Positions 4,100 through 54,601 of a stretch of 64,000 bases of DNA are shown here, in pieces. The position numbers were made by a program, and so were the translations under genes. Source of the DNA: a bacterium (GTDB taxonomy: Bacteria; Patescibacteriota; Saccharimonadia; Saccharimonadales; JAUPVS01); assembly GCA_029780855.1 (NCBI GenBank), contig JAKOXV010000018.1, positions 54,104-118,103 of the forward strand, given 5' to 3'. The notes under the pieces are model-generated. The model searched no databases. It had not been told where the DNA came from and was given only the letters and a program-made list of their open reading frames with translations. Every line of letters begins with the position of its first letter. Positions within the stretch are counted from its first letter, which is position 1.

Positions 4100-4609
4100 T
4101 TACAGGTGGTTTACTATTTCTTCAAGCTTATCAAGTGTTTGGTCAAAACCTTGTTCCATACCCATTTCGAGCACTGTTCTTAGAGCTTCTTCACTATCGT
4201 AGTAAGTTACTGCATGGAGTAGTGTCGAATCGCCCTTAACAATTAAATCAATGTTGTTTTTTGAGGCCGGCAAGTCCGTATTTATGTTACCTTGGTCATC
4301 GGTAAAGTAATCGGTGTAGCTCAGCGAGGTTGTAGGATTTATTTTGGTAAATACCATTTTCCCAGCACTCGTTTGACCGTACCACTCCCCCTGTGATTTA
4401 TCTACACATTTCATGACGTAGATGTTTTCGCCATTTTCGGTGAAATCAAACTTTTTTGATGTTACCTCCCAACCTTGCGGAGCAAACCACTGCTCAAATA
4501 CTTCCTTATCGCTATATGCCCGCCAGAGCTTTTCTTGGGGAGCGTTAAAGCTGCGCTCCATGGTTAATGTCTTTTTATCATCGCTCACTGTAAATGTTGT
4601 TTTACCCAT
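4100..4609 (-). CDS. SRPBCC/AHSA1 (Aha1-like) domain protein
   Basis: TLTMERSFNAPQEKLWRAYSDKEVFEQWFAPQGWEV is typical of the AHSA1/SRPBCC fold. I chose the start at the ATG (MGKTTF) that abuts the ArsR stop codon. Confidence 0.7.
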   Translation of the reverse strand: MGKTTFTVSDDKKTLTMERSFNAPQEKLWRAYSDKEVFEQWFAPQGWEVTSKKFDFTENGENIYVMKCVDKSQGEWYGQTSAGKMVFTKINPTTSLSYTDYFTDDQGNINTDLPASKNNIDLIVKGDSTLLHAVTYYDSEEALRTVLEMGMEQGFDQTLDKLEEIVNHL

Positions 4610-5484: not shown

Positions 5485-6321
5485 ATGAAAATAACAAAAA
5501 CTACCCGTGACCAATTAGTAGCCCTTCCGCTCACGGCCGTGGTCTGCGTGGCCCTTATTTTGCTGCTGTGGCTGGAGATAATTTTAATCAACCGCTTCAC
5601 CAGCGAAGCTATAAAAGTACACATTCGCCTCAGCGATGTACTAGTTGGGTTAACCATTTACCTCAAAACGTCCATAGACTTTGCTATGTTCATTGGCCGC
5701 TTAATGGATAAGAATCCCGGGCTCAAAGGACGTATAGGAATAGAGATTGGTACCGCGCTCGGAAACGCTGCTGGTACGTTTGGCATTCTGCTGGTCTGGG
5801 CGTTCTTTAAAGAAGTTAGCTGGCTCCTGGCTATTATGATCTTTATTGCTGCATTGGTGTTAATCCGGCTAGCTCAGGATGGTCTTGAGCACGTAGACAT
5901 ACAAAACAGCCGCTATCCAAAAGCCTTTCGAGCTTTTGTGCGCGGCTTTGACACCACACTAAAAGTAGTAAACAAATATCTTGACCCTCTGCTGTCCAAA
6001 ATCCTTCCGGGCCGCAGCTTATCGGTAGAAACCAAAACAAGCTTGTGGGCACTTTTGGCTATGTCCTTTACCGTACCATTTATTTTAGGTCTGGATGATT
6101 TTGCTGGGTACGTTCCGCTATTCAACATAGTAAATGTGTTTGGGTTCGCGACCGGCGTATTTGTGGGTCACATGCTACTGAATATATTTTTGTACCTATC
6201 ACCTAAACGCACCATTAAGGCAGTTAAAAACCCGATCATCGCAGTACTTGGTAGTATCGCATTTATCATTTTGGCCGGCTGGGGACTATTCGAAGCCTAC
6301 AAACTCCTCTTTATTCATTAA
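5485..6321 (+). CDS. Polytopic integral membrane protein, family not recognised (278 aa)
   Basis: Seven to eight hydrophobic helices, for example LPLTAVVCVALILLLWLEIILI and WLLAIMIFIAALVLI. No diagnostic motif identified. Confidence 0.6.
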   Translation: MKITKTTRDQLVALPLTAVVCVALILLLWLEIILINRFTSEAIKVHIRLSDVLVGLTIYLKTSIDFAMFIGRLMDKNPGLKGRIGIEIGTALGNAAGTFGILLVWAFFKEVSWLLAIMIFIAALVLIRLAQDGLEHVDIQNSRYPKAFRAFVRGFDTTLKVVNKYLDPLLSKILPGRSLSVETKTSLWALLAMSFTVPFILGLDDFAGYVPLFNIVNVFGFATGVFVGHMLLNIFLYLSPKRTIKAVKNPIIAVLGSIAFIILAGWGLFEAYKLLFIH

Positions 6322-6323
6322 TG

Positions 6324-8021
6324 CTAACCCTTGCCCCAAACGCTATTTAACGCTATAATCTCCCCTGTTCTAACCCAAAAAGGGAAAAGAGCAGCCCAAG
6401 CAAAAAACGCATTTTTTGCCCGGCGCGATGAGAAAAACCGTAGGTTTGTCTCATTACTATGCGAGACTAGCTCAGTTGATAGAGCGCTTCCTTGCCAAGG
6501 AAGAGGCCACGGGTTTGAGTCCCGTGTCTCGCACCAAATGTTTGAATTATGAGCCGCAAGGCTCTTTTTCTTTGTCTCAACGACTGTTCTAAAGGGGTCG
6601 TTGAGTATATAAGACAACTTCTTATCCTTTAGTTCAATGTTTGAAAGTACGTATTCTAGCAACTTCTGTCTAAGCCCCTCATCGCTCTCATTGAACAGCT
6701 GTTCAGCCCGTTGAGCCAAGTCTAACAGATAGGATGCAGTAACTTGAAAGTCTTTATTGTCGCTTGTTAGCAACTTTAGGCGGTCATTTAGCTCCTGCTG
6801 TTTCTTTTCTAGCTCAGTTGCAATTTCATCGTGGAATGTCTGTGTAATACGACCCTCAAGCAAGTCATAGTAAACCTTTCGCATTTTTTCCTTGAGTTTG
6901 TCGTACTCAGCACGGGTCTGCTCAATGTTTTGCGTGAAGTATAGCTGCTGGTCGTTATGACGGTTACGCAGCTCGGTAATGACTTTATCTAACCACTTCT
7001 CAGGCACGTCTATAAATCCTATATCTTCCGTAACCTTATCAATTACGAGGCTAACGGCTGTATTCGGATTATCGCACTTTGAGTTGGCACACCGCAAATA
7101 CACGGTGTTACGAGCCTTGAACGGCGATACTGCACGTCCGCATTTACCGCACTTCACTATCTTTTTCAGGGTAAAGTCTTTGCTGTCGTACTTAGTCATC
7201 TCGTGCTTACGCTCATCACGGACACGCTGTACCTGATTGTATAAGCCACGACTGATTAGCGGCGGGTACTTGTGCGGGTAGCGTCTGCCAGCGTGAACCA
7301 TAAAGCCGCAGTAAAACTCGTTGCTTAGTATTCGCTCAAGAAATTGTTTGCTTGGTGCTTTACTACCAGCAATGTTGCTACGAAAGCCCATCTCACGCAG
7401 TTCCTTAGCGATAACGGCGTATGAAATGCCTCTTGCTCGCATCTCGTAGGCTTTTACAATGTAGTGAGCCTTAGTGTCATCAACCTCAATGTCTTTGATA
7501 GGTTTCTGTGGCGTACCGCCTTTCAGGACGTTTTTGTAGCCAACAGGTGCTCTATGTACCCATATACCCTCACTGAGCATTTGTTCAAAGCGGCGTTTGA
7601 CGTTATCACGGATACTGTCTGAGTAGTATTTAGCCAGTGCCATACCAATACCAAGCCTGAACCAATCAGCTGCTGACGAGTTTTGGTCAATGTACAAACT
7701 GTCGTGTGGGAAGTGCAGCTCAATTTTTCCGAGCTTTACCAGCTGCTGCAATGCTTTTACTTCTTCTTGGCTACTATCACGGGTAAAGCGGTCTATCTTA
7801 TCAAAGACCACGTAACACAAGCCAGTTTGTTTGTGGATGTGTTCAACTAACTTTCCGAACTTCTGCCGCTCGTCTTTATGAGCACTTTCGTCAAACTCGT
7901 GATACTCGTATGGTAGTTTCTTCTGTTCGGCATATCTTTCAAGCCGTAACTTCTGAGCTGGCAACGCTTTTCGTTGCTCTATATCTGATACTCGTGCGAT
8001 TAGGATTATCTTTGCGTCCAT
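6324..8021 (-). CDS. Large serine recombinase (integrase)
   Basis: N-terminal resolvase domain with catalytic Ser context IILIARVSDIEQR. It also has a recombinase domain, a zinc ribbon CGKCGRAV...LRCANSKCDNPN, and a C-terminal coiled coil. The ORF has no stop until 6324, so the last roughly 70 codons run antisense through the tRNA-Gly gene. Confidence 0.85.
   Translation of the reverse strand: MDAKIILIARVSDIEQRKALPAQKLRLERYAEQKKLPYEYHEFDESAHKDERQKFGKLVEHIHKQTGLCYVVFDKIDRFTRDSSQEEVKALQQLVKLGKIELHFPHDSLYIDQNSSAADWFRLGIGMALAKYYSDSIRDNVKRRFEQMLSEGIWVHRAPVGYKNVLKGGTPQKPIKDIEVDDTKAHYIVKAYEMRARGISYAVIAKELREMGFRSNIAGSKAPSKQFLERILSNEFYCGFMVHAGRRYPHKYPPLISRGLYNQVQRVRDERKHEMTKYDSKDFTLKKIVKCGKCGRAVSPFKARNTVYLRCANSKCDNPNTAVSLVIDKVTEDIGFIDVPEKWLDKVITELRNRHNDQQLYFTQNIEQTRAEYDKLKEKMRKVYYDLLEGRITQTFHDEIATELEKKQQELNDRLKLLTSDNKDFQVTASYLLDLAQRAEQLFNESDEGLRQKLLEYVLSNIELKDKKLSYILNDPFRTVVETKKKSLAAHNSNIWCETRDSNPWPLPWQGSALSTELVSHSNETNLRFFSSRRAKNAFFAWAALFPFWVRTGEIIALNSVWGKG
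6461..6536 (+). tRNA. tRNA-Gly (anticodon GCC), CCA encoded; integration target (attL side)
   Basis: Acceptor GCGAGAC/GTCTCGC. Anticodon arm CTTCC-TTGCCAA-GGAAG. T-loop GGTTTGAGTCC. Confidence 0.95.
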
Positions 8022-45818: not shown

Positions 45819-47777
45819 TTACTGCAGCACCGCTTTAATGCGCCGAACCCCTGATGAAGAAGCTTCTTCTTTAAGGATCTTAAAGCGTTTGCCGTCTTCG
45901 AATAACTGCATGGTATGGTCGACATGAGGACCACCACAAATCTCAAAGCTAAATGGTCGCTCATTTGGATCCGCATTAGGGTCTTTCATGGAATAGACTT
46001 TTACCATCTCGCCGTAACGATCACCGAACTGACCGAGCGCTCCGAGCTTTCCTGTTGCCTCCTCGGTTGGGTATTCCGCCCAAGAAACTTGTAAATCTTT
46101 AGCAATCTGCTCGTTTACAATGTCCTCTACGGCTTTTATTTGTTCGGGAGTCACCTTTTCGGGATGACTAAAATCAAACCGTAAACGCTCTTCAGTAATG
46201 TTTGAGCCGCGCTGAACCACGTGATCACCAAGGACATCGCGGAGTGCCTGGTACATTAAGTGCGTAGCAGTATGATACTTCTTGTGCTGCAGCGTGTGAC
46301 CACCCAGTCCGCCCTTAAACGTGCCCTTGGCGGCAGTTTGCGAACGCTTTCGCTGTTCTTCCATTTTGGCGTCAAATTCTGCGCGCCAGTTATCAGAAAG
46401 TGGGATTCCTCGTTTAAAAGCTTCCTCTGTACTAAGCTCTACGGGAAAACCATAGGTATCGTACAAAGTAAACACTCTTTCCCCGGTGAGAGTTTCCGGT
46501 ACAGAACCCCCGATTGTATCTGGACCACCGATAGTTGAAACACCGATCGTGAATGGGCGAGTACCCTTTTCAAATTCCTTGAGGCCTTTGCGCAAGGTTT
46601 GACGAAAGGCTTTTTCTTCACGCACCAGCACCTCCACAATGAGGTCTTTCTGCTTGGCAACTTCCGGGAAATCGTTATGGTACAGCTCAGCGATTACCGG
46701 TACTAAGTCCTGCAAAAAGTTCTGTTCTATTCCCAGTTCAAACGCAAAGCGAATAGCTCTACGCAATAAACGCCGCATAACATACCCTTGTTCTTTATTG
46801 CTGGGCTTTACGCCGTCAACCGCCAAAAACGTTGCTGCTCGCAGGTGATCCGCAATAACGCGCATACTGTTGGTGTGCGATTCGTATGGCTTGCCACTGA
46901 TCTTTTCTAGTTCTGCAATGATCGGCCAGATTACACTGACCTTAAATGCATCAGGATTGTCGATTGCCGCCATGGCAATTCGCTCTAAACCACCACCGAA
47001 GTCTACGTTAGCTTTTGGCAACTTTTTAAAGCCTTCGGCTGTTTTTACATACTCCATGAATACCGAGTTGCCTATTTCTACAAAACGACCACAGTCACAG
47101 TTGGGATGACAGAACTCACCGTGCACAGGATTGTGCTCAACAAAATCAAACTCATAAAATACTTCGCTATCCGGGCCGCCTGGTTCTCCGGCTGGCATAT
47201 CATCTATCTTGCCGCTCCGGCACCACCAGTTTTTACTCGCGTCATAAAAGAAGATTCGTTCACCCGGCTTGGTTCCCCGCTTGGAACCATCAACTTCTGA
47301 ACCAATTTCTGCCTCTTTGGCTTCCACTCCCGCCTTTTTAAACAACTCTGCCCAGATTTTGGCACTTTCTGTATCTTTTGGGATGTCGTTTTTGCTATCG
47401 CCAATAAAGCAGGTAACGTACAGCTTGCTTGGGTCAACACCCACAACGTCAGTTAAAAATTCAAAAAACCAGGGAAGCTGGTCTTGCTTAAAATAGTCAC
47501 CAAGACTCCAGTTGCCAAGCATTTCAAAAAATGTTGTGTGTCGATTATCACCGACCTCTTCAATATCTTGTGCGCGCAAGCAGGTTTGACTGTCCGTTAA
47601 GCGGTTACCCAGAGGGTGCGATTCGCCAAGTAAGTACGGTATGAGCGGTTGCATACCAGAGCCGGTAAATAGGGTGGTTGGGTCGTTATCGGGCACCAGT
47701 GGAGCACGCGGAATTACCTTGTGGCCACGTTTTTCAAAAAACTCCAAATAGGATTTACGTATTTCTTGGGCATTCAT
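45819..47777 (-). CDS. alaS: Alanine--tRNA ligase, short form lacking the C-terminal C-Ala domain (652 aa)
   Basis: MNAQEIRKSYLEFFEKRGHKVIPRAPLVP...FTGSGMQP is the class II core. The editing-domain motifs HTATHLMYQALR and CGGPHV are present. The protein ends soon after the editing domain. Confidence 0.95.
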   Translation of the reverse strand: MNAQEIRKSYLEFFEKRGHKVIPRAPLVPDNDPTTLFTGSGMQPLIPYLLGESHPLGNRLTDSQTCLRAQDIEEVGDNRHTTFFEMLGNWSLGDYFKQDQLPWFFEFLTDVVGVDPSKLYVTCFIGDSKNDIPKDTESAKIWAELFKKAGVEAKEAEIGSEVDGSKRGTKPGERIFFYDASKNWWCRSGKIDDMPAGEPGGPDSEVFYEFDFVEHNPVHGEFCHPNCDCGRFVEIGNSVFMEYVKTAEGFKKLPKANVDFGGGLERIAMAAIDNPDAFKVSVIWPIIAELEKISGKPYESHTNSMRVIADHLRAATFLAVDGVKPSNKEQGYVMRRLLRRAIRFAFELGIEQNFLQDLVPVIAELYHNDFPEVAKQKDLIVEVLVREEKAFRQTLRKGLKEFEKGTRPFTIGVSTIGGPDTIGGSVPETLTGERVFTLYDTYGFPVELSTEEAFKRGIPLSDNWRAEFDAKMEEQRKRSQTAAKGTFKGGLGGHTLQHKKYHTATHLMYQALRDVLGDHVVQRGSNITEERLRFDFSHPEKVTPEQIKAVEDIVNEQIAKDLQVSWAEYPTEEATGKLGALGQFGDRYGEMVKVYSMKDPNADPNERPFSFEICGGPHVDHTMQLFEDGKRFKILKEEASSSGVRRIKAVLQ

Positions 47778-47868
47778 ATCTGTTACATTCTACCAGAACC
47801 AGTGAGAAGTCTGAACATTGAAATCTTCGGTATATTTGACAACAGGAGTATTCTAGTACATAAGACAT

Positions 47869-49536
47869 ATGGAGAAATCGATTTTTGACGCAACCCAAGA
47901 AAGCAATCCACTCACAGACCTAGGTTCTGAACACCCCGAAATGTCACGGTGGCGTCATATCAGGAAACCGGCTGCATTTGTGGCTGGATGTGCCGCACTG
48001 GGAGCGGCCTACGGCGCATATCGAGGCGCAACAGAACCCACCAGTATTCAACTTGGCCCCAACCGAGCAAGCGTTCATGTTACTGCCGATGAAACCCTGA
48101 CCGTAAACTTTGCAAAGGATCAGTATCTCACCTGGCCGTTGGATACCGTTGGTTTTGGTGCTGATGTCACCGTGGGTGATTTGTCTGTGCAAGAGAACAG
48201 TCAGGGTAATCCCAACCTCGATCAAGTGGTATCTGAATACGTTCAGTTGTTTTCGGCTAATTCAGAGTATCTGGCAACGGATGTACGAAACAAGGTAATT
48301 GACAACATTGAAGGAACTGCACTGCTTTGGGGTTTGTTGGGTTCACTCGGCGCGTTAAGTTGCCTGGCGATGCACTATCGGACACCTACGCATACTCGAG
48401 ATGCGGCATTTGAGTATTTTCACGCACTCCGCAAGCCAGCCGCCAAAATAGCCTTGGGAACCACCCTTGTCGCTGCACCAGTGGTAATTATTGGTAGCGA
48501 CACCTTTACTCCCCCCGAAAAGCAAGCTGCAGCACTTTCAAACGGCGCGCCTACCAGCCCGGTATTTAACGGTACTTTCTTAGAAAATGCCACTATTCAT
48601 GGTGAATATCTAAAAATGGCCATCAATACAATCGCCGGTCCGGCTCTAGAAAAAATTCAATCGGTTAACACATACTACGAAAACTCTGCCCGAAAGTTTT
48701 CCGAACAATTTACCGAACGCTATGGTGACAGCTTTGATCGAGGAGATGCAACGTGGGCATTTGTTGCTGCCGATGAACATTGCAATATTGGCGCAAACAA
48801 GTTTTGGGGATCGGTTATAGCTCACTATATGCCCGACGTAGCCTTTTTAGCCGGCGATCAGACTAATGATGGCACTGAAGCAGAAGGTGTTTGCGTGGCG
48901 AGTGAAGCATCAGCACTCAAAGGCATTCCGGCGGTAGTTTCTGGAGGCAACCATGATTCACTACAAACAGCCGAGCAAGACCGAGCCAACAATATACGGG
49001 CAGACTTTGGGAGTACTACCGAAGTAGCAGGTTTCCGGGTATTTACTGAAACGGATCCACGTCTCGATTCGTTTGGTGACGAAACGCGCAAAACAGACGA
49101 AACAGATGTTGAATATGCACTTCGGATTAGACGCGCGGTTTGTAAAGATAAACCTGACATCTTACTGGTGCATGATCCTGGTTTAATTTATGCAACCGTA
49201 AAACAGGGCTGTGCTAAACTAGCGATTTCTGGTCACCTGCACCAACAGAATGGCCCTTTCTACGTGCAGACTCTTGAGGGCGAGCGGTCTTACCAGTTTG
49301 TGCAAGGTACGAGTGGTGGCATTAAACCAGCGACTCTCGCGCTATTTTATTTCAAAAACGAGGAACCAGCTCTTAGCAGCTTGCTAAAGTTTGATCCCGA
49401 AACCAAAGAGCTATTAGGGCGAATAGACATCACCCTCAATCCCGATGGAACACCAGAAATTAGTGACTTCATCCCCGTATCCAGGGCACAAGCACTGCCA
49501 AAAACTCCTCAAGAATACCAAGGCCAAATCGACTGA
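47869..49536 (+). CDS. Membrane-associated calcineurin-like metallophosphoesterase (555 aa)
   Basis: Motifs FVAADEHCN, LAGDQTNDG, SGGNHDS, LLVHDP and ISGHLHQQ in canonical order, with N-terminal TM segments. Confidence 0.75.
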   Translation: MEKSIFDATQESNPLTDLGSEHPEMSRWRHIRKPAAFVAGCAALGAAYGAYRGATEPTSIQLGPNRASVHVTADETLTVNFAKDQYLTWPLDTVGFGADVTVGDLSVQENSQGNPNLDQVVSEYVQLFSANSEYLATDVRNKVIDNIEGTALLWGLLGSLGALSCLAMHYRTPTHTRDAAFEYFHALRKPAAKIALGTTLVAAPVVIIGSDTFTPPEKQAAALSNGAPTSPVFNGTFLENATIHGEYLKMAINTIAGPALEKIQSVNTYYENSARKFSEQFTERYGDSFDRGDATWAFVAADEHCNIGANKFWGSVIAHYMPDVAFLAGDQTNDGTEAEGVCVASEASALKGIPAVVSGGNHDSLQTAEQDRANNIRADFGSTTEVAGFRVFTETDPRLDSFGDETRKTDETDVEYALRIRRAVCKDKPDILLVHDPGLIYATVKQGCAKLAISGHLHQQNGPFYVQTLEGERSYQFVQGTSGGIKPATLALFYFKNEEPALSSLLKFDPETKELLGRIDITLNPDGTPEISDFIPVSRAQALPKTPQEYQGQID

Positions 49537-49574
49537 TATGTTGCGCTCATACTGTATTGGTTATATACTCTTTC

Positions 49575-49602
49575 TTGAACTTTAAAATGTAAACAATATA
49601 AA
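49575..49602 (+). promoter_or_regulatory. Sigma70-type promoter of the candidate leader RNA
   Basis: TTGAAC (49575-80), a 16-nt spacer, then TATAAA (49597-602). Confidence 0.5.
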
Positions 49603-49608
49603 GAGTGC

Positions 49609-49737
49609 AGCGAGAGTCCTAGCTTGTCGACCTGCCAGCAACCTGTCACTAGATAAGGTGCTCCATCTAGCCCATACGTGGGGAAGATATTGCTACACAA
49701 TAATCCTTTCCTATGTATGCACGGAAAGGATTTTTTT
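49609..49737 (+). promoter_or_regulatory. Candidate cis-regulatory leader (riboswitch/attenuator-like, about 130 nt) ending in a terminator that contains the downstream gene's SD
   Basis: The terminator AATCCTTTCC-TATGTATGCAC-GGAAAGGATT plus T7 (49702-49737) ends 1 nt before the ATG at 49739. Its 3' arm GGAAAGGA is the only SD-like sequence. Upstream hairpins include CTAGAT-AAGGTGCTCC-ATCTAG. Class not recognised. Confidence 0.4.
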
Positions 49738-49738
49738 A

Positions 49739-50257
49739 ATGGCCGAATCGGCAGCTTCACAGTTAGAACAAACTGCTCATAGCCCGTATATATTTCAGCA
49801 GTTTATTGCTATGGTTGTGCAGCAGTGCTTAGATGAAACGTTACTTACTAGACAGTATAGCCTTACCTTTTATGGCCACAATGAACATGCACCCATAAAG
49901 GAAGATGTATCGGTTACACTCGGGGTACTACTCCGTGAGGACGGGACAAAACAAATGACCCGAATTGGCAATGTGGAGCGGATCTTATCCGGCACCACGA
50001 TCGGCCTGGGATCCCAAATAGGCGATGGTTCCATAATTAAAAGAGCGCAGATTGAAGCGGGAGCAACTATCGAGCCATACAGTCTTCTGGAATTTGGAAC
50101 GTACGTTGGCGAAGATGCAATAATTTCACAGGGTGGAAAGCTCTGTACTCAATCGCAACTTGGAGCTCGAGCAATTATGGGCGAGGGAGCCGAACTCAAT
50201 TACGACACCCTGTTAGATACCGACCAAAAAGTAGAGCCGTTTACGGTCCACTACTAG
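49739..50257 (+). CDS. Left-handed beta-helix (hexapeptide-repeat) protein, function unknown (172 aa)
   Basis: The C-terminal half has hexapeptide-like periodicity: GTTIGLGSQIGDGSIIKRAQIEAGATIEPYSLLEFGTYVGEDAIISQGGKL. Confidence 0.55.
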   Translation: MAESAASQLEQTAHSPYIFQQFIAMVVQQCLDETLLTRQYSLTFYGHNEHAPIKEDVSVTLGVLLREDGTKQMTRIGNVERILSGTTIGLGSQIGDGSIIKRAQIEAGATIEPYSLLEFGTYVGEDAIISQGGKLCTQSQLGARAIMGEGAELNYDTLLDTDQKVEPFTVHY

Positions 50258-50261
50258 TTAT

Positions 50262-51305
50262 CTATACGATTATTCCGCCGCCTAGGACCTGTCCACCATC
50301 ATAAATAACTGCCGATTGACCGGGCGTTATAGCACGAACTTCGTCATCAAGCTGCACCTCTAAGCCGGTATTAGTCGGCCGTATTGATGCGCCGACCAAC
50401 GGAGCCCGATACCGAGTCCGTACTTGAAATGTGCTGGTCAACTCTGGCTCACCGTTAATCCAATGTACGCTTGTTAGCTTCAGATTTTTGTGCCAAAGAC
50501 GTTGGTCATCAAGATTCGTCGTAACATACACCTCATTCTTGGCCATATCTTTACCTACTACGTAATAGGGCAAACCTCCGCCAACATGTAAACCATGTCT
50601 TTGACCAATAGTATAAAAAATCGCTCCATCGTGCTCCCCGACCACTACTCCATCCTGCTGAATGATTTTTCCTGGCGTTGTTGTAACGTATTGCTCCAGA
50701 AACTCTCTGATTCCCACTTTTCCCACAAAACAGATTCCCTGGCTATCCTTTTTTTCGGCCGTTACAAGTCCAAGACGTTTAGCTTCTGCTCGGACCTCCG
50801 CTTTTGTTTTGAATTCTCCAATGGGCATGAGGCTCTTTTGCAATGCCGCTTCAGAAACTCTATACAGAAAGTATGTCTGATCCTTGTCTAGATTATTGGC
50901 TGTCAGGAGCTTACCGTTATGTATACGTGCATAGTGCCCAGTGGCAATCATGTCTGCTCCATCGTCTAGCGCAGTATCTAGAAAGAGTTTAAACTTTACC
51001 TCTTGATTGCACATGATATCGGGGTTAGGGGTTCGTCCTGCCTTATATTCGTCTATCATGTAATCCACGACTTTTTGCCGGTACTCTTTTTCGAAATCGT
51101 ACATTTTGAACGGTATTTTTAACTGTACGGCCACACGCTTGGCGTCTTGGTAATCATCCTTCCAGGGGCAAGGAAAACCGGGAAGATCCTGACTCCAGTT
51201 CTTCATGTATACACCCGTAACGTCGTAGCCCTGCTGTACGAGCAGTGCTGCGGTAACCGATGAATCTACACCTCCGCTGAGGCCAACGTATACTTTTTTT
51301 GACAT
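50262..51305 (-). CDS. mnmA: tRNA 2-thiouridine(34) synthase MnmA
   Basis: PP-loop VGLSGGVDSSV, catalytic Cys contexts NPDIMCNQE and DSQGICF. 347 aa. Confidence 0.95.
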   Translation of the reverse strand: MSKKVYVGLSGGVDSSVTAALLVQQGYDVTGVYMKNWSQDLPGFPCPWKDDYQDAKRVAVQLKIPFKMYDFEKEYRQKVVDYMIDEYKAGRTPNPDIMCNQEVKFKLFLDTALDDGADMIATGHYARIHNGKLLTANNLDKDQTYFLYRVSEAALQKSLMPIGEFKTKAEVRAEAKRLGLVTAEKKDSQGICFVGKVGIREFLEQYVTTTPGKIIQQDGVVVGEHDGAIFYTIGQRHGLHVGGGLPYYVVGKDMAKNEVYVTTNLDDQRLWHKNLKLTSVHWINGEPELTSTFQVRTRYRAPLVGASIRPTNTGLEVQLDDEVRAITPGQSAVIYDGGQVLGGGIIV

Positions 51306-51327
51306 AACTAAAGCATTTTATCAAATA

Positions 51328-52227
51328 TTATTTAGAATCCGAACCATCTCGCTCGAGTCGACGCCGTAGATTCAGAATTGCACTGCGGTTTCCCAGCCAG
51401 AACGACAAAAGTGCCACGATGACAATTATTAACAGCCACAACCACCATGGATAGGTCTGACAAATCTGAATAATCTTTGACCCCGTTCCATCTGAGCTTT
51501 TCTGGGCGACTGCTCCGTTAGCAATACCCACCACCTGCAAGAACGCTGAGTCCCCGTTTTTATCGGTAGCTATGATAATTATGTTATACACACCTGAGCT
51601 AGTATAGACGTGGGCTAAATCCATGTTGCCGGGGAATTCCTGACTCTTTAGATCTATCGTGCCATCGCCCCAGTCCACGCTTACCGCGTAAGGACCGGCA
51701 CCCCCCGATATGCTGATTGGCCAAGTGAGCGTGTCATTGGGATTAGCACCACGCTTCGCATAGTTACTAGTAAGCGATATACGCTTACCAACACCGCCAT
51801 ATTTTGCATCGTTAAAGGTCACGCTTACCGTATTTGAATCTGGCCCTGCTTGGTCTAGAGCATCGTATACCCGGGCAACCAAGTCGTTTTTACCGCTAAA
51901 AAGATCAATTTGCAATGAATAACTACCGTTCTGACACTGAATGGACCCGGCAAAGACCTGGTTTTTAAAGATCTTTACCAGCACATCTGCGGGACAAAGC
52001 CCCGACACTCTAACGGGGATGCTCGTAAAGGTCTGCCCATTAGTTGGCGTTGTGATAGTAGCACCAGTAGCAGGTGGTGGTGCAGCAACTTCACCCTGTA
52101 AACCAACTGAACCACTCTTCTGGGTGGCCGCAGCGACTGAGTTAATTGGCACGGCAGCAAAAAGGAGTACCGCAAAAAACCCTATTGCAAAGAAATATGA
52201 ATGAATTTTGAGGAATCTTTTCATCAC
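51328..52227 (-). CDS. Secreted Ig-like/PKD-domain protein with C-terminal TM anchor (299 aa)
   Basis: Signal peptide (FFAIGFFAVLLFAAVPINSVAA). PKD-like motif YAVSVDWGDGT...HVYTSSGVYNIIIIATDKNGDSA. C-terminal TM WWLWLLIIVIVALLSFWL. Confidence 0.7.
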   Translation of the reverse strand: MMKRFLKIHSYFFAIGFFAVLLFAAVPINSVAAATQKSGSVGLQGEVAAPPPATGATITTPTNGQTFTSIPVRVSGLCPADVLVKIFKNQVFAGSIQCQNGSYSLQIDLFSGKNDLVARVYDALDQAGPDSNTVSVTFNDAKYGGVGKRISLTSNYAKRGANPNDTLTWPISISGGAGPYAVSVDWGDGTIDLKSQEFPGNMDLAHVYTSSGVYNIIIIATDKNGDSAFLQVVGIANGAVAQKSSDGTGSKIIQICQTYPWWLWLLIIVIVALLSFWLGNRSAILNLRRRLERDGSDSK

Positions 52228-53311: not shown

Positions 53312-54601
53312 TCAGTACGTCGCAACCACAATAAAGTCTGCTTGCGCAGTGTAGGCACCGGTTGGTGTCGTGATACTGGGTGTGGCAGCAAACTTAAGCA
53401 CCAGGGCCTCGTCATCAACAACAGTTGATGAACTAGCTATTTGAGTGGCGGTACCACCCTCTACCCACGCGTAACCGGCCGAGTTACCAAACGTAGTCGC
53501 CGTTGCGCCGATATAGTTTGTGCTAGCCTTGAGATTGTTTGTGCCACTGGTTAATGCGCAGGAATAGGCGCTCGTAGAACCGCAGTTAGTGCCCGCAACG
53601 GTCATCCCAAACTTTTCTGTTCCAGCGGTAAACGTACCTTGCGTGCCACCTTGGGCATCGATACACTGGTCGGTGTTGACGCTACCGGCATTACAGGTTG
53701 AGCCAGAGACCCTTAGCGTACCGAGATGGTTCGTACCCGACTGCTGCACCGCCTTGTAACTAACCGTGGCACCGTTTACGGCGTTTGTCCGTAGCATAGC
53801 TACCGCATTCGTGTTACTACCTCCCGTGGTGGTAGATACCGGGGTTACTGATATGGTCGAAGAGTCAAGCGTTCCGAGGTTGACCGAAGATCCGCTCACG
53901 CCACTACAATCAGCAGCAACTGAAGTAGTAGCGTCATCAACCGCACTAGAACCAACACAGAATGATAATACTTCTTGGATTGCGGCGTTAATGGTAAGTG
54001 TTTGGGTTGTTGATGATGCTACGGTTCCCTGATCTAAGATACTGCCTACGGTGTAGGTATTGAGGTTGTAGGTGGTTATCCGCACAAAGAACGTACCGAT
54101 GGCCGTGGGGTTTTGGATACTGTTCAGCGTAAGGGTGTGGGCTGTTGTGCTAGTTTCTGCGGTGGTTGCACCGGTTCGTTTCATACACAAGACACTCGCG
54201 CTTGCCGTACAATCGTTTGCTCCAGTTGCATCCTTAGCAAAGCTTGTAGCATTATCGCCCCAGTTAGCCTGCGAGCTAAAGGTTGCGCTCGACCACGAGA
54301 ATCCTGTCGGAGCCGTACAAGTACCGAGTGCGGTAGTACAGACATTAAACTGTAGGCCGTTTACCGCTGTTCCTGCTCCCGTAGAAGCCGGTTTGAAGCT
54401 AAAGATATACTGCGTGGTTGCGCTCGAACCGGCACTAGACGCCGTACTTATAGACAATGAGCGGCTCGATAACTGTCCTGCCGCATAAGCTGGTGCTGAA
54501 CCAAAGGCCATAAATAGTCCGCTCGCCGCGATAACCATCGCTTGGACGACTACTACCAATATTTGTATTTTATTTTGCACCCGTTTGAATACTTTTTGCA
54601 T
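53312..54601 (-). CDS. Secreted T/S/G/A-rich beta protein, fibre-subunit candidate, paralog A (429 aa)
   Basis: Signal peptide ending APAYA|AGQL. Ten Cys in five conserved pairs. C-terminus PTGAYTAQADFIVVATY. Confidence 0.7.
   Translation of the reverse strand: MQKVFKRVQNKIQILVVVVQAMVIAASGLFMAFGSAPAYAAGQLSSRSLSISTASSAGSSATTQYIFSFKPASTGAGTAVNGLQFNVCTTALGTCTAPTGFSWSSATFSSQANWGDNATSFAKDATGANDCTASASVLCMKRTGATTAETSTTAHTLTLNSIQNPTAIGTFFVRITTYNLNTYTVGSILDQGTVASSTTQTLTINAAIQEVLSFCVGSSAVDDATTSVAADCSGVSGSSVNLGTLDSSTISVTPVSTTTGGSNTNAVAMLRTNAVNGATVSYKAVQQSGTNHLGTLRVSGSTCNAGSVNTDQCIDAQGGTQGTFTAGTEKFGMTVAGTNCGSTSAYSCALTSGTNNLKASTNYIGATATTFGNSAGYAWVEGGTATQIASSSTVVDDEALVLKFAATPSITTPTGAYTAQADFIVVATY

Follow-up and report, generated by a model that had tools for sequence, protein, structure and literature searches.

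We analysed a stretch of 64,000 nucleotides from a bacterium of the class Saccharimonadia (Patescibacteriota), referred to below as the window (GenBank assembly GCA_029780855.1, contig JAKOXV010000018.1, forward-strand positions 54,104 to 118,103; all coordinates below count from its first letter). Our subject is a cassette consisting of a gene for a 172-aa hexapeptide-repeat protein, a left-handed beta-helix (LbH) protein, and the untranslated leader that precedes it. Its neighbours in the window are alaS, a 555-aa metallophosphoesterase-like gene (47869-49536) and a convergent mnmA. An earlier note on this DNA had read the leader as an OFF-type riboswitch whose terminator hairpin also buries the Shine-Dalgarno (SD) sequence of the hexapeptide-repeat gene. 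That reading was right in kind and is supported here, and our results place the RNA in the S-adenosylmethionine (SAM) binding class SAM-I, or S-box. The element begins further upstream than 49575, where the note had set its start. The features of the cassette and its convergent neighbour are as follows.

49541-49546, forward strand: -35 hexamer TTGCGC, inferred by comparison only

49564-49569, forward strand: -10 hexamer TATACT, from the aligned hexamers of leader alignment A2

49581-49590, forward strand: conserved leader segment TTTAAAATGT, with invariant columns T23, T24, A25, A26, A28 and T31 of alignment A2

49593-49693, forward strand: SAM-I (S-box) aptamer, from the RF00162 match, our own model R1 and covariation

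49673-49719, forward strand: antiterminator of 14 bp, 49673-86 with 49706-19, from folding and comparison

49702-49737, forward strand: intrinsic terminator and SD sequestrator (5' arm 49702-11, loop 49712-22, 3' arm 49723-32, U-run 49731-37)

49723-49730, forward strand: SD sequence GGAAAGGA, in the terminator 3' arm, 8 nt before the ATG

49739-50257, forward strand: LbH gene, 172 aa, a left-handed beta-helix with an N-terminal two-helix cap

50262-51305, reverse strand: mnmA (tRNA 2-thiouridylase, by Pfam), convergent

The leader gave a full-length match to the Rfam family RF00162. In a permissive cmscan of 49500-49800 (301 nt), model positions 1-108 of 108 aligned to 49593-49693 at 42.8 bits (E-value 9.8e-9). 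Reckoned for the 64-kb window against 4,227 Rfam families the E-value was 2.1e-6, and this was the sole riboswitch match in the window. An Rfam scan had been suggested as a check by the earlier note, and its outcome depended on the settings: run by default at gathering thresholds it reported tRNAs only in the window, with no riboswitch, and gave no matches in 14 nearby Saccharibacteria loci. The window aptamer was missed by the default scan because its score lies just under the RF00162 gathering cut-off of 44.4 bits, which is a curated operational threshold and not a structural feature. A covariance model of our own (R1), built from five LbH-linked aptamers, scored the same RNA at 112 bits. 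The strongly conserved SAM-I segments, UAU-AAGAG, GCAACC, GGUGC and GAUAU, are all found in the window copy. At the segments of the ligand pocket (the U-A/A-U pairs of P1, AGAG in J1/2 and GCAACC/GGUGC in P3), all upper-case consensus positions were matched by cmscan, and these segments were invariant in ten LbH-linked copies. The bases that contact SAM in the crystal structures are among them. Weak cmscan matches to PyrR, snoRNAs and ncr1575 (E-values 0.2-8) and a weak R1 match at 5994-6090 (E-value 0.4) were taken as noise.

Judged by its sequence, the RNA belongs to the known class SAM-I (S-box, RF00162) and is not a new class. The earlier note had recognised no riboswitch class in it. A new, unclassified class would agree with the lack of a match at gathering thresholds in the default scan and with a downstream gene that is not a known riboswitch target, but the full-length RF00162 alignment includes all the highly conserved core strings, related leaders do pass the gathering score, covariation fits the SAM-I helices and the identical variant of the aptamer precedes metK elsewhere (see below). 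We consider this alternative almost certainly wrong.

In the RF00162 fold, the window aptamer is made up of the following parts, all on the forward strand.

49594-99 with 49687-92: P1

49605-16 with 49623-36: P2, with GA/GA kink-turn bases and the loop CUAG at 49619-22

49637-47 with 49652-62: P3

49666 with 49685: closing pair, U49666-A49685

49667-70: J3/4 pseudoknot strand CUAG, predicted to pair with the P2 loop

49671-74 with 49679-82: P4, with the loop UACG

Covariation agreed with this fold in two alignments, both of them fitted to the model, which favours the model. Among the ten LbH-linked aptamers 90.2% of cells were paired, compared with 35-44% when the partners were slid, and eight pairs had changed on both sides, including pairs in P2 (G-C/A-U) and P4 as well as the closing pair (U-A to C-G). 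When 101 aptamers were aligned to R1, standard pairs filled 90.4% of cells against 35-45% with partners slid; 18 of the 29 pairs showed compensatory change, a figure that none of 500 shuffles equalled. The kink-turn of P2 was seen at the sequence level only, with GA on both strands at the expected positions (CGAGAG...GUCGAC in the window and UGA in most of the other nine). The two CUAG strings of the pseudoknot (49619-22 and 49667-70) show perfect 4-nt complementarity and both are invariant in every copy, so no covariation can be read from them. A different hairpin, CTAGAT (49649-54) with ATCTAG (49665-70), had been picked out by the earlier note. The inverted repeat is present, but we rejected it as aptamer structure: it is absent from the nine other relatives, and in the SAM-I fold its bases form the P3 loop, the P3 3' strand and the J3/4 pseudoknot strand.

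The upstream regions of homologous genes were compared, as the earlier note had proposed. DNA was recovered for eleven LbH family members besides the window, L022 from a scan of mnmA loci and L081/L082, L083, L084, L205/L206, L207, L208, L209, L210 and L211 by exact-protein look-up. In each of the nine further loci whose upstream sequence is long enough, a full-length SAM-I aptamer lies directly upstream of the LbH gene, with Rfam scores of 56.5, 55.9, 53.2, 52.6, 48.9, 48.1, 43.9, 43.7 and 42.5 bits. With the window included, all ten complete LbH loci carry SAM-I; six pass the gathering cut-off (48.1-56.5 bits) and four (the window, L205, L209 and L211) score 42.5-43.9 bits. As those four copies fall under 44.4 bits, routine annotation would systematically miss this group. 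In L210 the contig ends 124 nt before the LbH gene, and a 5'-truncated SAM-I match at the contig edge is consistent with the other ten. Over about 1 Mb of sequence around mnmA in Saccharibacteria, and in the window, R1 found no further copy, and a hidden Markov model of the LbH family recognised the gene in just one out of 80 species-level loci. Within those neighbourhoods, the LbH gene is rare; the RNA accompanies it wherever it occurs and is found nowhere else.

Both the covarying SAM-I structure and the arrangement of terminator, SD and ATG were conserved in 10/10 leaders. Since that arrangement recurs in ten of ten related leaders whose proteins are only 25-50% identical, it is real and beyond chance. 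The same comparison bears on the idea of a decaying, non-functional SAM-I relic, to which the sub-threshold Rfam score, the short P1 and the atypical downstream gene would lend themselves. A relic would hardly be kept in 10/10 family members across deep protein divergence, with its core nucleotides invariant and with P2, P4, the closing pair and the antiterminator all showing compensatory change. We therefore regard this explanation as very improbable.

The expression platform combines a terminator with an antiterminator. The terminator stem pairs AATCCTTTCC (49702-11) with GGAAAGGATT (49723-32) around an 11-nt loop. The 10-bp stem and the seven T at 49731-37 described in the earlier note are present, but the first two T also form the last two stem pairs, leaving only five free. 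The T-run is indeed followed by one A and then the ATG, which starts at 49739 and not at 49740. GGAAAGGA was confirmed as the sole SD-like string and lies inside the terminator 3' arm. A UCCUUUC...GAAAGGA stem followed by a U-run of 5-7 occurs in 10/10 leaders, and in 8/10 the start codon stands 6-8 nt past the stem. The 49702-32 hairpin was not called by a consensus terminator scan, because that scan admits loops of 3-8 nt only.

One strand of the antiterminator (49673-86) comprises the P4 loop, the P4 3' strand and J4/1, and the other (49706-19) comprises the terminator 5' arm and loop. The long terminator loop is thus explained by the 14 bp that the antiterminator forms with it and the 5' arm. 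When a transcript without the terminator 3' arm was folded, its minimum free energy (MFE) structure also had the P1 3' strand captured in an inner hairpin (49688-92 with 49698-702). The antiterminator was calculated at -20.2 kcal/mol as a folded sub-sequence and -19.8 kcal/mol as a duplex, compared with -9.6 kcal/mol for the terminator. With shuffled arms none of 300 and none of 500 were as good, the shuffled mean being -9.5 +/- 2.4 kcal/mol against -19.8. The outer ends of the antiterminator differ among relatives yet stay complementary (CAUAC/GUAUG, GGUUUUU/AAAAAUC, UAC/GUA and CUG/CAG), and the shuffle fraction was at most 0.054 in seven of the ten leaders. Terminator and antiterminator are mutually exclusive, the latter taking up the P4 3' strand, J4/1 and the P1 3' strand, and this exclusivity is conserved with covarying ends.

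The same platform could work mainly as a translational OFF switch, in which the hairpin masks the SD, the U-run is simply an A/U-rich spacer between SD and AUG, and little or no termination takes place. In favour of this, the hairpin is weak (-6.6 to -12.3 kcal/mol across leaders) and each copy carries its SD within the 3' arm. The U-run also serves as a spacer, for which 6-8 nt is an optimal length, and terminator use in Saccharibacteria is uncharacterised. However, a pure U-run of 5-7 straight after the stem in 10/10 leaders suits a terminator and exceeds what a spacer needs, and the antiterminator has the architecture of transcriptional S-box leaders. On balance we find a chiefly translational switch unlikely. 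A separate observation concerns L083 (3898-4100), where the LbH homologue has no in-frame AUG, GUG or UUG after the terminator and the annotated ATG falls inside the P1 3' strand. The start of this gene is therefore either misannotated or a non-canonical AUU.

Upstream of the aptamer, the pattern TTGnnn-17/18-TAnnnT ends 18-26 nt before the P1 motif in nine of the ten related leaders. The in-register -10-like hexamers in alignment A2 read TATACT, TATGCT, TATAAT, TACAAT and CGCAAT. From this putative promoter at 49541-69, transcription is predicted to start near 49576. The earlier note had placed the promoter further downstream, at TTGAAC (49576-81) and TATAAA (49598-603) with a 16-nt spacer, and the start near 49609. 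Those strings are present, but the hexamers are not conserved as a promoter and we rejected that role: the supposed -10 is the invariant AUAUAAAGAG of aptamer P1 and J1/2, and the supposed -35 lies in a gapped, unconserved stretch of the alignment. A transcript from about 49609 would also lose half of P1, because the 5' strand of that helix is 49594-99 (paired with 49687-92). Between the predicted start and P1 sits TTTAAAATGT (TTAACAAYT in relatives), a segment conserved across the LbH-linked leaders.

We next consider the regulated gene. The LbH protein reached only the generic Pfam model Hexapep (PF00132), with 28.1 bits against a cut-off of 27. AlphaFold2 predicted two N-terminal helices capping a regular left-handed beta-helix (pLDDT 93). 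An exhaustive HMMER search of 1.84 billion representatives returned about 25 full-length relatives of 165-200 aa, all in singleton or near-singleton clusters; the LbH family is a tiny orphan family confined to Saccharibacteria. Its open reading frame (ORF) is clearly under protein-level selection, with length, motifs and a confident fold kept at 25-50% identity. Conservation is seen at Cys30, Leu35, Arg38, Thr74 and a few positions of structural role, and no invariant His, Asp or Glu was found in the 22-sequence alignment A1. NCBIfam models scored 10-30 bits against cut-offs of 160-725 (best 28.6 against 207), and no CysE or SATase model in Pfam or NCBIfam was matched. The specific LbH enzymes LpxD, LpxA, GlmU, DapD/DapH, NeuD/PglD, gamma-carbonic anhydrase, Vat and CysE were rejected as identities, given far sub-threshold NCBIfam scores and the lack of an invariant His, Asp or Glu.

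Other searches with the LbH protein were uninformative about function. A word-indexed search of 5.8 billion proteins returned the query itself only, and with the family profile LpxD-type proteins dominated the results. Looking up contigs by the exact sequence of the window protein gave nothing. Foldseek against PDB found generic beta-helix proteins only (E-values 1e-4 to 1e-3, TM 0.2-0.5), as did a profile search of PDB sequences. PADLOC gave no match, and PHROGs gave repeat-level matches only, to families of unknown function. The gene is not a recognised gene of methionine, cysteine or SAM metabolism or transport, a context that is typical of SAM-I but does not define the RNA. Within the 64-kb window no metK and no Cys/Met pyridoxal phosphate (PLP) enzyme gene was found.

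Elsewhere the same aptamer variant is associated with such genes. The LbH-linked aptamers share a predicted palindromic pseudoknot between two CUAG strings, one in the P2 loop and the other in J3/4. Locally this pattern recovered known copies only, and in metagenomes it occurred on at least 120 contigs (L085-L204). Among the metagenome matches listed, 64 of the 90 distinct ORFs downstream of the CUAG variant are metK (SAM synthetase), six are Cys/Met PLP enzymes, one is a homocysteine methyltransferase and one a phosphoadenosine phosphosulfate (PAPS) reductase; no LbH ORF was found downstream of the variant in the same set. The CUAG variant is thus a widespread conventional SAM sensor, as it stands mostly before metK and also before Cys/Met enzymes. 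Several other features of these listed matches were recorded. MetK after the variant is often unusually short (about 320-335 aa), and around 20 of the downstream ORFs are of 100-160 aa with no Pfam match. One contig (L090) carries two SAM-I aptamers about 1.7 kb apart, at 6230-6354 and 4424-4550, both on the reverse strand.

The genomic setting of the cassette was also compared. Searched against 185,579 species genomes, the best relatives of the window mnmA were all from Saccharibacteria (TM7, Patescibacteria), with up to 78% identity. In most Saccharibacteria (L001-L080) mnmA and alaS are adjacent and co-directional. The LbH cassette, where present, stands between the two genes and on the opposite strand. 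Gene order thus suggests that the mnmA-alaS pair is ancestral and that the cassette was inserted into it. The slot between the two genes is variable, holding an EVE-domain gene, the 555-aa metallophosphoesterase-like gene or the riboswitch-LbH cassette (window 45819-51305; L001-L080). The cassette converges on mnmA in 10/10 loci. In the window the two stop codons are 4 nt apart (50257-50262); across the ten loci they are 0-11 nt apart or overlapping in seven, about 100 nt apart in L209 and separated by an extra gene in L022 and L208. The extra genes, on the LbH strand between LbH and mnmA (L022 7041-8147, reverse strand; L208 3614-4789, forward strand), encode Pro/Gln-rich homologues of 369 and 392 aa with 30% identity (E-value 2e-25) and a hydrophobic membrane-anchor-like segment. 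Neither had a Pfam match, NCBIfam matches were weak and far sub-threshold, and no functional clue emerged; both genes may be co-transcribed under riboswitch control. Elsewhere in the window, the permissive Rfam scan alone found a tRNA at 1198-1281 on the reverse strand (48.8 bits against a gathering cut-off of 29), which the default filter had missed.

A consensus scan of 49000-51450 found no terminator-like site on either strand, and so read-through transcripts probably overlap mnmA in antisense. This raises the alternative that antisense RNA is the main output, the ORF being secondary: read-through at low SAM would cross LbH, meet the mnmA-alaS unit head-on and lower mnmA expression by collision or duplex formation. 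Convergence in every locus, the close or overlapping stops in 7/10, the lack of a terminator-like site and the opposite-strand position inside an ancestral co-directional pair all suit such a role, and S-box-driven antisense control has a precedent (PMC2566862; survey in PMC9943018). Against it, the LbH ORF is clearly selected as a protein, a gene of about 370-390 aa separates LbH from mnmA in L022 and L208, tail-to-tail packing is common in compact genomes and no obvious logic leads from low SAM to less tRNA 2-thiolation. Because the LbH ORF is clearly conserved as a protein, we retain antisense control as a minor rival or addition; as the main output it seems to us quite improbable.

Taken together, the evidence makes it very likely that a SAM-I OFF riboswitch with a terminator/antiterminator platform controls the orphan LbH gene. 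In the mechanism we propose, a sigma-70-type promoter at 49541-69 would start a transcript near 49576, of which the first 120 nt or so would fold into the aptamer (49593-49693). When SAM is abundant, its binding in the P1/P3 pocket would lock P1, P4 and the CUAG-CUAG pseudoknot. With 49673-92 made unavailable in this way, the hairpin at 49702-32 could form, and hairpin and U-run together would end transcription one base before the ATG. In any transcripts that escape, the hairpin would still bury the SD (GGAAAGGA), which would give the switch a translational arm beside the transcriptional one. At low SAM, the terminator 5' arm and loop would instead be paired with the 3' half of P4, J4/1 and the 3' strand of P1 (antiterminator, 49673-49719), RNA polymerase would read through, the SD would be single-stranded and the 172-aa beta-helix protein would be made.

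Several results weigh against this reading. The window aptamer scores 1.6 bits below the RF00162 gathering cut-off. Its P1 has only six pairs, and across the ten LbH-linked copies invariance is confined to the four inner A-U pairs, the outer positions being mostly unpaired, which makes P1 unusually short. The terminator stems are weak, and termination efficiency is therefore uncertain. The antiterminator of L209 is no better than shuffled sequence and three others are marginal. Neither candidate promoter (49541-69 or TTGAAC/TATAAA) passes a consensus promoter scan, both falling below its criteria. The MFE z-score of the full leader is only -1.55, as expected for a bistable RNA yet not supportive in itself. 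Finally, any tie between the LbH protein and SAM or methionine is putative.

As for what the protein does, our best guess is a factor induced by SAM or methionine starvation, which may be an enzyme of the acyltransferase kind or else a beta-helix adaptor without catalytic activity. A more specific proposal, which we find possible but doubtful, is that the family is an unrecognised Saccharibacteria-specific component of SAM/methionine homeostasis, induced only at low SAM. It would act in bacteria that cannot make methionine and depend on a host for it. LbH could act as an acyltransferase on a scavenged sulfur-amino-acid precursor, or as an adaptor modulating a SAM-consuming process, and the cassette, in its fixed position head-on to mnmA, may also hold back the mnmA-alaS unit through antisense transcription gated by SAM.

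The riboswitch class is known and the OFF mechanism is standard, so the RNA itself adds little. The novelty lies in a small family of beta-helix proteins, restricted to Saccharibacteria, whose control by SAM-I is obligatory. In the literature searched we found no native riboswitch described from Saccharibacteria, SAM riboswitches included, and no S-box in front of a hexapeptide-repeat gene, an absence that applies to that literature only and is not proof of novelty; for Patescibacteria, riboswitches have only been proposed as future tools (review, PMC11665869). Exclusive riboswitch control in 10/10 loci offers a ligand-anchored handle on the role of LbH. The association points to a SAM-starvation response in minimal-metabolism episymbionts, where regulation is poorly understood. 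A native, compact (about 160 nt) ligand-responsive promoter-leader could in addition serve as an expression-control part, a tool needed for Patescibacteria genetics (PMC11665869).

Small LbH proteins such as the PglD/PerB sugar N-acetyltransferases, the gamma-carbonic-anhydrase-like YrdA/PaaY and the LbH domains of GlmU, LpxD and eIF2B-epsilon share with the present family the hexapeptide-repeat beta-helix of about six coils. The present family differs in having no family-level match to them and in its unique N-terminal two-helix cap with conserved Cys30, Leu35 and Arg38.

In its convergence on mnmA the cassette resembles the S-box of Clostridium acetobutylicum ubiG-mccBA, where a SAM-I read-through transcript likewise runs convergently into another gene with no terminator between (PMC2566862). 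Here, by contrast, the riboswitch is separated from the convergent gene by a conserved protein-coding ORF, the would-be target mnmA belongs to no sulfur-amino-acid operon and the antisense RNA is putative. Antisense-acting riboswitches have been defined as lying 3' of, convergent to and at most 500 nt from a target gene, with an antisense transcript made (PMC9943018). The window aptamer is convergent with mnmA with no terminator between, but stands about 570 nt from the mnmA stop with an ORF in the interval.

The metagenome metK leaders (L085-L204) have the identical CUAG variant and pattern, and among the matches listed R1 scored 55-97 bits on all full-length copies. They differ in what follows, which in the same listed matches is metK (64/90) or a Cys/Met enzyme and never the LbH family. 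Compared with SAM-I/S-box RNAs at large (RF00162, clan CL00012; for example the yitJ and metI leaders of Bacillus subtilis and the metF aptamer of Thermoanaerobacter tengcongensis), the LbH leaders share the four-way junction of P1-P4, the GA/GA kink-turn bases in P2, a predicted pseudoknot between the P2 loop and J3/4, the core AUAUxAAGAG/GCAACC/GGUGC/GAUAU and a terminator/antiterminator platform predicted to be OFF with ligand. The predicted pseudoknot here is a perfect palindromic CUAG/CUAG, where the consensus has cuGG/CCug. P1 consists of very few pairs, all of them AU, and P3 and P4 are minimal, with a UACG tetraloop. Unlike in typical SAM-I leaders, the terminator 3' arm is itself the SD, the U-run is the spacer between SD and AUG, and the regulated gene is not a recognised gene of methionine, cysteine or SAM metabolism.

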